From the NCBI GenBank assembly GCA_035625045.1, contig DASPQI010000462.1, positions 1-43,958 on the forward strand: 43,958 bases of DNA, in the 5' to 3' direction. The notes beneath the pieces were generated by a model, which was not told the origin of the DNA, ran no database searches, and worked only from the letters and a program-made list of their open reading frames with translations. The position numbers were made by a program, and so were the translations under genes. Positions 37,938-43,270 of this stretch are shown here, piece after piece. This stretch comes from Syntrophales bacterium (GTDB taxonomy: Bacteria > Desulfobacterota > Syntrophia > Syntrophales > UBA2185). Position 1 is the first letter of the stretch, and every line of letters begins with the position of its first letter.

Positions 37938-39233
37938 TCACTTATAAAGCGCATCGAGAGGACTGTGCGGCACTTTCGACATGTTTCTGACGACGCGGGT
38001 GTAGATCATGGTCGTTTCCACATTCTTATGTCCAAGAAGCTCCTGGACTTCACGGACGTTCACACCGCTTGCCAGGAGATGCGTAGCAAAGCTGTGGCGC
38101 AGGGTATGGACGCTGGCACGCTTAGGGATGCCCGACTTTCGCAGCGCATTTTTTATCATGTCCTGGATCGCCGTGTCACTGATATGCTGACGGCTCACTC
38201 TACCGCTTCGTGGATCGACAGAGAGCCTCGCCGATGGGAAAACATACTGCCATGCCCACTCTTTGCCTGCCTTCGGATATTTATGGCCGACTGCCCCAGG
38301 AAGCTGGACTTCTCCATATCCTTTTGCAAGATCATCTTCATGGATGAGCTTCACCGCTTCCAGATGCCCTTTAAGCCTGTCTTTGACAGTTGAAGGCAAA
38401 ATTGTCGTTCTATCCCTGCCGCCCCTTTCGCTTCTTACAAATATAGTATTCGCATCAAAATCTATGTCTCTCACCCTCAGGCGGGCAAGTTCCATGAGTC
38501 TCAAGCCCGCACCATATAATAGCTCAGCGATTAACCGATTCTTGGCACTCATGGGGACAAATAGAACCTTGACCTCATCTACAGATAATACAGATGGCAG
38601 CTTCTGTCCCCGTTTTTCGCGTATAGCGCTGCTGGGATCGCCTGTTTCCTTACCCAGCACATTGCGAAAGAAGAAACGAATTGCGTTGAATGCCTGGTTT
38701 TGCGTTGAAGAAGATACTTTTCTTTTGTGGGAGAGATAAGCGAGAAAATTTTTAAAATCCGCCGCCGCAATATCAGATATCTTTGTCTTTTTCTCCGCAT
38801 GAAATACATAGTCAAGAAAACGTTCTATCCATTGAAGATAGACACGCTCTGTGCTGTTGGAATAATGCCTGAATCTGATCAGACGTCTTCCTTCCTTGAG
38901 CAAGCCGCTAACATCCGCAGGGCGGGAGACGCTTGGTACATGTTCAGCCATCTTTTTAAGATATTGAGTAAAATAAAGCCGCAGCGCTTCATTCGCCTGA
39001 CGATGCTGCCATTTAAAGATGCGTCTATCGGACTGTAAAGCATCGAGATATGCAGTGACCGCCCCCTCCTGATAGACCACCATGGACAATTTATGTTTTT
39101 TGGCGTAGTCAAGATATCTGTTGACCCAATGTGCATAGGAGGGGACATTACTTTCCGGGGCAAGCTTTTCTTCCAGAAGGAATTTCTGGAACTCTGGCAG
39201 GGATTTATCTCGAACCTTTGTCGATTTATCCAT
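37938..39233 (-). CDS. intI: Integron integrase (IntI-type tyrosine recombinase) with an extra N-terminal SAM-like domain
   Basis: Catalytic region [45 protein letters not shown]. The IntI-specific insertion [35 protein letters not shown] aligns with the IntI1/VchIntIA pattern KYPxAxxxWxWQYxFP...DPxSGxxRRHH. Confidence 0.9.
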   Translation of the reverse strand: [431 protein letters not shown]

Positions 39234-39386
39234 AAATTACCAAGTTGGTTTTTTGTGCTTATTATCATAATATACCAAAAATAAAAAGCCTATTTCATAT
39301 CAATTTTCATTTATTTCCTTCTCAAATTTACTGAAATAAGTTAATGTCTGACAAATTTTTATCAAAGCCAACTTAGTATATTAATT

Positions 39387-39393
39387 GTTAGCC
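39387..39393 (+). other. Candidate attI core site
   Basis: GTTAGCC (consensus GTTRRRY, one mismatch). It lies 154 nt from the intI start and 15 nt before the first cassette ATG. Confidence 0.3.
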
Positions 39394-39408
39394 TAAGAGA
39401 GTACGGAC

Positions 39409-40209
39409 ATGTATCGAGCAACAAATAAAACTGGTCGCTGTTGCATCTGCGGAGGAGACGGCAAGTTGTCTTTTGAGCATGTGCCTCCGAGATCAGCCTT
39501 CAACGACCATCCGGTGCTCGTGGCTAATATCAAGGAATTGATTGGCAACTGGGATGGTGAGTTGAAGTCCATTAAGGGAAGAGTTCATCAATTGGGAGCC
39601 GGTGACTACACTCTATGCGAGGAATGCAACAACGATATAGGAGCATGGTACGGAAATGCCTTCGCGGATTGGGCATATCAAGCATTTAGGGTACTCACGT
39701 ATGCGAGCGGCGAACCAACTCTTTATTATCAGTTCAGGGTTTTTCCGCTACGAGTCATTAAACAGATAGTATGTATGTTTTTCAGCTCAAATGGCCCTGA
39801 TTTCCGAACTGCCCATCCCAATTTAGTCAAGTTCGTCTTGAACTCAGAGGTTAGGTACATAGAACCCTCGATTCGCATATACACTTACTACAAATTGGCC
39901 CCCGTTTCGCGACAGTCGGGCGTTGCCAGCTTGCTAAATATAGAAAAGCAACAGGGGTATACATTCAGTGAAATAGCTTTTATACCACTCGGCTATCTGA
40001 TGACCTTGGAATCCAAGGTTCCTGATAACCGTCCGATTGATATTTCGTTTTTCGCCAACTACCGTTATGACGATCGGAAGGAGTTTTCCTTTAGGATTCC
40101 GGTTTTGCCGGTATACACCTACTTTCCTGCTGACTATAGAAACCGAGACGAAGTATTGGCAACAGGCAGAGAAAATAGAAACCACAGAAGAGAGCTAACA
40201 GCCCGCTGA
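39409..40209 (+). CDS. HNH-like nuclease N-terminal module with an uncharacterised C-terminal domain (266 aa)
   Basis: CCICGGDGKLSFEHVPPRSAFN ... YTLCEECNNDIGAWY, i.e. CxxC...EH...CxxCN, a beta-beta-alpha-metal finger pattern. The remaining ~180 aa are unrecognised. Confidence 0.6.
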   Translation: MYRATNKTGRCCICGGDGKLSFEHVPPRSAFNDHPVLVANIKELIGNWDGELKSIKGRVHQLGAGDYTLCEECNNDIGAWYGNAFADWAYQAFRVLTYASGEPTLYYQFRVFPLRVIKQIVCMFFSSNGPDFRTAHPNLVKFVLNSEVRYIEPSIRIYTYYKLAPVSRQSGVASLLNIEKQQGYTFSEIAFIPLGYLMTLESKVPDNRPIDISFFANYRYDDRKEFSFRIPVLPVYTYFPADYRNRDEVLATGRENRNHRRELTAR

Positions 40210-40337
40210 ACTGGATTGGCCAGTAAAGACGTCCTCCAGGTTAGTGTGACTTCTACAGATTAGCTTCGCATCGTACTTCTCATAAGCAAGCAGCTATGTT
40301 AAAGTTTTTGGTACGCCAGATAAAAAAGGATCGACAA

Positions 40338-41722: not shown

Positions 41723-42190
41723 ATGGCACGCATAGGTATTCTTACATGTTCCAATTCCACGCAGGAAAGTAACTGCGGTTCAGTTGTATGTTTGGGAGAT
41801 ATGAGAAAGCGTGGAGGTTTCTTCAATACATATCCAAAAGATGAACCGATAGATTTGATCGGCATTATAAACTGCGCTGGATGCCCGACTGTCGCAGCAC
41901 CAGAAAAAATTCTGAAAAAAGTTCGCGCTCTTGCTGATTTCAGAATTGATGCTCTTCATTTCTCTTTTTGTATGACCGCTCTCTGCCCTTTTATAAAACA
42001 GTACGAAAAAGTCATCAGCAGAGAATATCCAGACTTAAAAATTGTTATGGGTACACACAAGCCAATAGACAAGAATGAATTCCAGAGAGGTGTGAAAGAG
42101 ATTCTTTGCCAAACCATAAGGAGACCCCAGGATATGACGTCTCTGGTTAAAGGAACATTAGAGCTGCCTGATGGGCCGTTAAAATTCTAA
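41723..42190 (+). CDS. CGGC-domain-like protein
   Basis: MARIGILTCSN...NCAGCPT...ALHFSFCM. GGAGGG RBS. Confidence 0.6.
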   Translation: MARIGILTCSNSTQESNCGSVVCLGDMRKRGGFFNTYPKDEPIDLIGIINCAGCPTVAAPEKILKKVRALADFRIDALHFSFCMTALCPFIKQYEKVISREYPDLKIVMGTHKPIDKNEFQRGVKEILCQTIRRPQDMTSLVKGTLELPDGPLKF

Positions 42191-42309
42191 TTTAGTTTTA
42201 TTACATGTTATAAAATTTGGATTCATTTTTAAAACCGTCGTTAGATCAAAGAGATGTTATCCAAAACTGATCAGACCAGCAGACATGACGATTCGGGGAG
42301 ACAATCCTT

Positions 42310-43014
42310 TTGAGAGCTTCTGATATATGTAGCAGATTGCAGGCACTTGGAGATAGAGAAAGAGCACAGATAGTGCAAAGATTCTTCAAAACAGGCCAAG
42401 GTGAATATGGTCACGGAGATATATTTGTCGGTCTTCGTGTTCCGGAGATTAGAAAGCTGGCCAAAGAATATCAGGCAATCACCTTAGTAGAAACAACCAA
42501 ATTACTTCATTCTCCCATACATGAGGCAAGACTGCTTGCACTATTAATTTTGATACGTTCCTACAAGCAAGAAAATTATTCTCTCCAAGAACGCATTTAT
42601 AATCTATACTTGAAGAATACACAGTTTATAAATAACTGGGATCTGGTAGATGCCTCGGCGGAACACATTGTCGGATCTCATTTGAGATATCGCAGTAGAT
42701 CTCCTCTTCATGCCCTAGCAGTGTCTGACCTTCTTTGGGATCGAAGAATTTCCATCATGGCAACATTTCATTACATAAAATATGGGGAGTTCGCCGAGAC
42801 ACTGCGTATTGCAGAGACATTGCTCAACGACGCAGAAGATCTAATCCACAAAGCTGTCGGTTGGATGCTTCGTGAAATAGGTAAACGTGATCATCTTACT
42901 GAAAAAGAGTTTCTGAAAGTACACTACAAGGCTATGCCGCGTACTATGCTCCGGTATGCCATCGAGAAATTTCCAGAGAAGTTGAGAAAACAATATTTGC
43001 GTGGAGAAATATAA
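42310..43014 (+). CDS. DNA alkylation repair protein (AlkD/HEAT-repeat family)
   Basis: RFFKTGQGEYGHGDIFVGLRVPEIRKLAKEY ... NNWDLVD ... KAVGWMLRE. TTG start with GGGGAG 8 nt upstream. Confidence 0.75.
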   Translation: MRASDICSRLQALGDRERAQIVQRFFKTGQGEYGHGDIFVGLRVPEIRKLAKEYQAITLVETTKLLHSPIHEARLLALLILIRSYKQENYSLQERIYNLYLKNTQFINNWDLVDASAEHIVGSHLRYRSRSPLHALAVSDLLWDRRISIMATFHYIKYGEFAETLRIAETLLNDAEDLIHKAVGWMLREIGKRDHLTEKEFLKVHYKAMPRTMLRYAIEKFPEKLRKQYLRGEI

Positions 43015-43057
43015 TTTCGATTTGTTGAAACCCAAAAATCAGAATAAGGAGTTTATC

Positions 43058-43252
43058 ATGGCTTTATTGAAGGAAGGCGCAATTCCCATCGGGCGGACGA
43101 TGTTTATTCCCAAAGAGGGAGGTTTGACAAAGGGCAGTCTGGAGATTGAATCCAACGGCCAGTATAATATTATAGAGAGGCCTGACCGATTCGAAATCAA
43201 GAACGCTGAATGCTGTAGAAGCATCCTTGTGAAGGTAAAGACGAAAGAATAA
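43058..43252 (+). CDS. Hypothetical small protein (64 aa)
   Basis: ATG preceded by AAGGAG at 6 nt. No recognisable motif. Confidence 0.45.
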   Translation: MALLKEGAIPIGRTMFIPKEGGLTKGSLEIESNGQYNIIERPDRFEIKNAECCRSILVKVKTKE

Positions 43253-43270
43253 TCTTTACAGCAGTCACTA

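Follow-up and report, generated by a model that had tools for sequence, protein, structure and literature searches.

The 43,958-nt contig DASPQI010000462.1 of a Syntrophales bacterium (assembly GCA_035625045.1), analysed here in full and called the window, carries an integron integrase gene (intI) that faces six short genes, and this locus is probably a sedentary chromosomal integron whose attC recombination sites have eroded. The intI gene (37938-39233, minus strand) encodes a protein of 431 amino acids (aa). Opposite it, six open reading frames (ORF1 to ORF6, counted from intI) are co-oriented on the plus strand with gaps of 43-119 nt, and the array ends at the stop codon of ORF6 (43252), 18 nt from that of a convergent ABC ATPase gene (43271) whose product has TOBE domains. 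A first-pass annotation of the window had reported both the six ORFs and the 18-nt spacing, which we find as described, and had called the locus a chromosomal integron candidate. Three observations lead us to keep that name: the integrase is genuine, the array varies between close relatives by ORF-sized units starting at the intI-proximal region, and one junction, between ORF3 and ORF4 (junction 3, J3), is homologous to the attC sites of related integrons.

The 431-aa product scores 388.7 bits against the NCBIfam profile TIGR02249 ("integron integrase", cutoff 265) and does not reach the NCBIfam equivalog cutoffs of XerC and XerD. Its residues 114-426 match the Vibrio cholerae integrase VchIntIA (PDB 2A3V) with E = 1.6e-67. 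The segment previously quoted as an IntI-specific insertion pairs with VchIntIA residues about 210-242, so that the additional domain specific to IntI is present and the protein can be considered a bona fide IntI, as had been claimed.

IntI relatives were retrieved from genomes and metagenomes. The nearest ones belong to a Syntrophales metagenome-assembled genome (L003, contig DATKLL010000182, 90% identical; L066 has the same sequence) and to a metagenome contig (L067, Ga0326726_10040082, 83%), and a wider clade from Nitrospirota, Smithella and Syntrophales is 53-67% identical. The flanks of the locus are collinear between the window and L003, with 92-96% nucleotide identity, and the array differs by single-ORF, co-oriented units. 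In the slot adjoining the putative attI, window positions 39393-40259, which contain ORF1, are missing from L003 and replaced there by 92 bp of unrelated DNA. L067 has the same intI-proximal region, then an unrelated ORF of 273 aa and next its homologue of ORF2. This first slot therefore differs in all three genomes, which points to capture or loss at attI after their divergence and to a platform that was active fairly recently. Downstream of it, homology between the window and L003 resumes sharply at TTAGCTTCG (40260), where identity jumps from about 26% to about 90% over one or two bases. Further along, window positions 41122-41690 (ORF3) correspond to about 3 kb in L003 that encode two methyltransferases (302 and 214 aa) and a GH26-like protein. 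Both genomes have ORF4 and ORF5, and L003 carries a GNAT acetyltransferase ORF between ORF5 and ORF6. The edges of this GNAT unit read T/TTGAGG and A/TTGAACC in L003 (the slash marks the edge), and the window reads G/TTGAAAC. In total, ORF1 and ORF3 are specific to the window, four ORFs are specific to L003 and one is specific to L067. The first-pass annotation had named two findings that together would speak against an integron, namely no attC match at any junction and conserved synteny of all six ORFs in relatives lacking the integrase. We do find no significant attC match (see below), but the synteny of the six ORFs breaks down in L003, which has neither ORF1 nor ORF3, and the integrase is present in all of the relatives.

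The search for attC sites relied on a covariance model of our own rather than on that of IntegronFinder. Two outgroup loci, L044 and L053, contain obvious attC repeat arrays. A first model was seeded on the L053 attC family and identified attCs in other loci, which yielded a structural alignment of 27 sites, and the final model (R2) was built from these 27 attCs of relatives. The single-family seed was adopted after 18 seed attCs of two families, aligned with MAFFT, had given no RNAalifold consensus; a crude finder based on AAC...GTT plus folding energy was dropped for its excess of false positives. R2 detects 79 sites in 34 related loci, with scores of 15.6-58.6 bits, and 78 of the 79 lie on the expected strand and side, divergent from intI. 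The remaining one (L144 11456-11550, plus strand, 34.9 bits) is located on the intI strand downstream of intI, which suggests an integron with inverted intI orientation. The window's own IntI clade has textbook attCs of 55-91 nt, for example GCCTAAC-AAATC-ACTCCAGCGGACGGCTTACAGCCGCCGCTGAGT-TCAAGC-GTTACAC in L071. These recoveries in relatives serve as the positive control for R2.

An unfiltered R2 search of the whole 43,958-nt window finds nothing in the array at E <= 10, and its single match, at 7486-7512, was rejected as noise. The locus thus fits, by our own model, the definition of In0 (intI without recognisable attC nearby), and software would class it so. When R2 is confined to the 4 kb of the array, a single junction aligns over its full length on the correct strand, namely J3 (41643-41698, plus strand; 7.2 bits, E = 2). 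At the corresponding position in L003, just upstream of the ORF4 homologue, there is one acceptable attC (16.1 bits, E = 0.011).

Homology and folding converge on the same junction. In a blastn-short comparison of the whole window with 58 attCs, the top three matches all fall at 41660-41684 (23/25 nt, E = 0.008) and the rest of the window does no better than noise. J3 is 56 nt long, reads ATATAAC-GCGCC-ACCACCGGATGGCTTACAGCCGCCGTTGACG-ACTGGC-GCTATAT, and aligns collinearly with a 58-nt attC family present in L071, L033 and L080, as ATATAAC / GCGCC / ACCAC--CGGATGGCTTACAGCCGCCGTTGACG / ACTGGC / GCTATAT. It shares with the canonical 55-60-nt attCs of the clade (for example L071 527-584 and L033 4475-4531) the layout R''-5 nt-L''-loop-L'-6 nt-R', and its central stretch is identical to L071 527-584 at 19 of 20 nt (CGGAYGGCTTACAGCCGCCG). 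Its bottom strand folds with -14.4 kcal/mol (z = -3.6, within the range of -1.9 to -3.7 of genuine attCs) and ranks 39th among 10,975 windows of a GC-corrected sliding fold. The R'' box ATATAAC is present, but the R' box reads GCTATAT (GTT changed to GCT), L'' has a 2-nt deletion and L' a C-to-T change (CTG to TTG), and the L box is mispaired. Unlike in the clade attCs, the two spacers are now complementary, so that J3 folds along its entire length as a simple hairpin. As judged from its sequence, J3 is a recognisable but apparently damaged attC.

The other five junctions fold no better than shuffled sequences on the bottom strand (z = -0.10 for junction 1, J1; -1.2 for J2; +0.4 for J4; -0.07 and -1.1 for the remaining two) and rank between 318 and 3,210 in the sliding fold. 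Neither J1 nor J4 has a covariance model match, and no direct repeat family or common motif is detected among the junctions of the window; those of L003 likewise lack a repeated motif. J1 (40193-40265, plus strand) combines an R''-like AGCTAAC (40193-99) with the near-complement ATTAGCT (40259-65), without an attC body between them. Complementarity of R'' to the 5' end of each cassette is not significant (p = 0.16-0.83, about 0.16 for J1) and was not used as evidence. The first-pass annotation had seen no obvious canonical attC and only short, non-canonical stems: the former statement agrees with the covariance model, homology and folding, J3 excepted, and the latter describes five of the six junctions but not J3, which forms a strong hairpin. 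All six GTTR cores that it listed (39387, 40240, 41176, 41679, 42240 and 43024) were located, as were the motifs AGCTAAC at 40193 and ATATAAC at 41643. GTTR occurs 10 times in the junctions, versus 2.9 expected from its window-wide frequency; just one core (42240) fits the canonical GTTRRRY, and GTTR cores alone are weak evidence.

The integrase itself carries a change in its active site. In the alignment with 2A3V, QGKGGKNRT of VchIntIA faces SERGGRDRT in the window, which places Arg270 (codon 38424-38426, minus strand) at the catalytic beta2-beta3 lysine (K160 in VchIntIA, K201 in Cre). Arg I, His-x-x-Arg, His and Tyr are all in place, and the catalytic set R-K-H-R-H-Y is incomplete at Lys. 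About 130 of the ~135 IntI relatives have Lys at this position, including L003 (SEKGGRDR) and L067, and Arg is found in the window genome alone, where the identical Arg270 protein is present in two independent assemblies. The corresponding mutant of Cre, K201R, shows very weak activity in vivo and no measurable recombination in vitro, and a Lys-to-Arg change is expected to lower the cleavage rate roughly 100-fold (PMC2943603). The integrase of the window genome is thus predicted to be attenuated. Two other relatives, L082 and L046, have Glu at the catalytic lysine (SGEGDKDR and DTEGYKNR), which may represent independent active-site losses.

We propose the following history for the locus. With intI read leftward and an attI/Pc region at its start, five to six cassette-derived genes would be read rightward. 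These genes would have entered as integron cassettes, since cassette-sized units are present or absent between close relatives and one attC homologue survives. The older cassettes, which are shared between genomes, would then have lost their attC sites to decay once these were no longer used, leaving five of the six junctions without a recognisable attC and depriving J3 of the GTT of its R' box and of part of its L box, and the integrase of the window genome would have gained an Arg in place of its general-acid lysine. Efficient excision or shuffling of the cassettes would presumably have ceased, and they may now be fixed chromosomal genes that purifying selection maintains and that probably share a transcript starting in the promoter region next to intI. 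The order of decay is unusual, as attC sites would have been lost before intI.

Several points weigh against the eroded-integron reading. The intI gene is full-length and still under purifying selection, with a ratio of nonsynonymous to synonymous divergence (dN/dS) of 0.18 against L003; neighbouring housekeeping genes are tighter, at 0.007-0.07. The turnover of the first slot postdates the divergence of the genomes (synonymous divergence, dS, of about 0.2-0.4). K270R need not inactivate the integrase, because about 3.8% of natural tyrosine recombinases have Arg in place of this lysine (PMC2943603). Our attC model could miss an unusual class of sites. A tblastn search of about 140 IntI loci did not recover any of the six ORFs as cassettes elsewhere; the lone extra match, a homologue of ORF4 in L012, lies on the side of intI opposite to that expected for cassettes. 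Finally, TTAGCT at J1 follows an A in the window and a C in L003 instead of the canonical G, and with non-G bases at some breaks, deletions or homologous exchange could explain the differences instead of IntI. Most other breakpoints can be located only approximately, because neutral divergence has left the DNA between genes barely alignable at a dS of 0.2-0.4. The breaks thus delimit putative units, and IntI action cannot be demonstrated from them. For the same reason, the ends of BLAST blocks near stop codons are not cassette boundaries, and the fact that homology in ORF2 ceases 11 nt ahead of the stop codon, once considered paradoxical for the cassette model, was dropped as an objection.

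The first-pass annotation had left two alternatives, an integron with divergent attC sites or an IntI next to an ordinary accessory islet, and neither fits exactly. Under the former, the IntI sub-lineage of the window, L003 and L067, which has the motif SE[K/R]GG[K/R]DR in place of SGKGDKDR, would use divergent, weakly structured sites with GTTR/TTAGC cores and its cassettes would still be mobile. We regard this as unlikely. The different first cassettes in three close genomes, the constraint on intI and the lack of strong covariance model matches in all three members of the sub-lineage would be expected if it were true, and it would also account for the enrichment of GTTR, with exactly one core each in J1, J2, J3 and J5, and for the several homology breaks that adjoin TT cores (TTAGCT, TTATGT, TTGAA). 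However, no repeated junction motif is found in the window or in L003; five of the six junctions fold as shuffled sequences do, the remaining IntI clade uses canonical attCs, and J3 looks like a damaged canonical attC rather than a new type. The absence of G before the TT core of J1 in either genome and the loss of the catalytic Lys in the window genome point the same way. A variant in which IntI of this sub-lineage moves genes at attI without any structured attC, via bare GTT/TTAGC secondary sites like those of the reported off-site "attG" insertions, seems to us improbable. If true, array turnover would continue without classical attCs, and the Lys-to-Arg enzyme would be a naturally attenuated integrase retained by selection.

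The other alternative, a plain In0 in which the integrase lies beside an ordinary accessory islet and strain variability results from generic insertion and deletion, is also a poor candidate, with little probability in our view. It would explain why there is no significant attC match, why the six ORFs are absent from other integron arrays among about 140 loci and why promoter and terminator scans of the locus stay at chance level, and one difference does resemble an ordinary indel. In the stretch of L003 that separates the ORF6 homologue from the stop codon of the ABC ATPase gene (1621-3427, plus strand), two ORFs are co-oriented with the ATPase, on the strand opposite to the array: one encodes a 239-aa protein without family match and the other a 276-aa member of the amino-acid-kinase family. 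Both are missing at window positions 43253-43270, and this 1.86-kb distal difference is either a clean deletion or an insertion. An ordinary islet does not account, however, for a homologue of relatives' attCs that coincides exactly with an ORF junction and lies on the expected strand, nor for the 16-bit attC at the corresponding junction of L003. Moreover, variable DNA starts at the intI-proximal region and consists of single-ORF units co-oriented and divergent from intI, and the cargo found only in L003 (methyltransferases, GNAT) is typical cassette content. The array is thus better read as cassette-derived, with eroded recombination sites.

The intergenic region between intI and the first cassette (39234-39393, attributed to neither strand) may act as the attI/Pc region. 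It is ~79% conserved among the window, L003 and L067 up to 39392-39401, beyond which the DNA is unrelated. A candidate crossover, G39387/TTAGCC, lies within an imperfect inverted pair (AGCCAAC at 39366-72 and GTTAGCC at 39387-93); L003 reads CCTAGC at this point. Promoter-like hexamers are no more frequent than by chance on both strands of this region, and chance-level promoter scans agree with an array of mostly promoterless single-ORF units. Neither Rfam families nor tRNAs were detected in the window, so the integron adjoins no tRNA and its junctions match no known RNA family. The strongest bottom-strand structures of the window (GC-corrected z of -4 to -6.4) are found at 11633-11722, 29037-29126, 13565-13684, 34613-34702 and 37641-37700. 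All five are outside the array and without Rfam match and may be terminators or RNAs; the last one sits in the 428 nt, devoid of ORFs, that separate the 3' end of intI from the gpsA-like gene.

The putative cassettes, all on the plus strand, can be delimited as follows. Cassette 1 (39388-40259), absent from L003 and L067, contains ORF1 (39409-40209), which has a weak match to HNH_5 (E = 0.016, 15.5 bits for a cutoff of 27.5). Cassette 2 (40260-41176), common to L003 and L067, carries ORF2 (40296/40338-41132), which encodes a putative secreted alpha/beta hydrolase, all of its alpha/beta-hydrolase and esterase matches being below threshold. Cassette 3 (41177-41692), specific to the window, carries ORF3 (41202-41648), a DUF3795 protein (PF12675, E = 9e-18). 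The next segment (41693-43024), common to L003, represents one or two former cassettes with ORF4 (41723-42190, CGGC) and ORF5 (42310-43014, DNA alkylation repair), and cassette 6 (43025-43254), also common to L003, encodes the 64-aa ORF6 (43058-43252), for which a family search gave no match. Of the functions first assigned, DUF3795, CGGC and DNA_alkylation are therefore supported by Pfam, while the HNH-like protein and the secreted hydrolase rest on sub-threshold matches. PADLOC returned no defence-system match for ORF1, ORF2, ORF6 or the uncharacterised ORFs of L067 and L003, and exact-protein look-ups of ORF1 and ORF3 retrieved the same genome from two assemblies only, with no new contexts. 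The array had also been described as AT-rich, which is true from 41.2 to 43.2 kb (ORF3 to ORF6, GC content of 0.36-0.43) but not over ORF2 (0.49-0.54).

The cassette ORFs shared with L003 are clearly maintained, with dN/dS values of 0.16 for ORF2 (89% nucleotide identity), 0.05 for ORF4, 0.07 for ORF5 and 0.10 for ORF6. The neighbours ORF4 and ORF5 differ in dS against L003 (0.18 versus 1.06), which suggests separate histories of the two genes or replacement of ORF5 by a more distantly related allele; there is no attC between them. In L003, the 92-bp ORF-less slot of cassette 1 (9752-9843, minus strand) has an attC-like shape, ATAAAAC-GCTGA-...-CATGAC-GTTGCAT, with canonical 5-nt and 6-nt spacers. 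It receives no model score and folds at chance level (z = -0.5), and may be the remnant of an empty cassette.

The integrase also has an additional N-terminal domain. Its first 110 aa (38904-39233, minus strand) are a second, diverged copy of the SAM-like core-binding domain: residues 1-110 match residues 111-221 in BLASTP (E = 5e-7), and there are two PF13495 stretches. This extra domain of ~110 aa is found in IntI of the Nitrospirota/Syntrophales/Smithella clade (loci L003-L038 and L066-L138), while proteobacterial and acidobacterial relatives align to the query only from about residue 100-125. A literature search found no description of a duplicated N-terminal domain in these IntI.

The mechanism proposed for this locus is not new in itself, as it corresponds to the known life cycle of sedentary integrons. 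It provides an example of integron ageing in a poorly studied anaerobic lineage, the Syntrophales, in which cassettes would be kept while attC sites erode and the active site of the integrase drifts. In IntegronFinder, In0 elements are intI genes without attC recognisable by covariance model, and they represent 24% of the intI genes in genomes (Cury et al. 2016, PMC4889954). Unlike an In0 taken as an empty platform, the locus has neighbours that comparative data mark as former cassettes. Loci scored as In0 can thus hide former cassette arrays that are seen only against close relatives, which affects metagenome surveys that count integrons or cassettes.

The locus resembles the sedentary chromosomal integrons of Vibrio cholerae (VchIntIA and its VCR array) and Xanthomonas (linked to ilvD) in several respects: an IntI with the IntI-specific insertion, an intI gene divergent from co-oriented, short and functionally unrelated ORFs, cassette-level presence or absence between close relatives, and a fixed position between housekeeping genes, here a gpsA-like gene and an ABC transporter. 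It differs from these arrays, which keep recognisable attCs, in being very short (six genes) and in having one degraded attC and no homogeneous attC repeat family. A parallel is the lineage-specific loss of integron activity in Xanthomonas, where arrays have been stabilised (bioRxiv 10.1101/2025.06.18.660453): in both cases, an ancestral platform would have eroded by lineage, with cassettes that are now stable chromosomal genes. However, intI is usually truncated or disrupted in Xanthomonas while attCs persist, whereas in the window intI is full-length and constrained and it is the attCs that have decayed.

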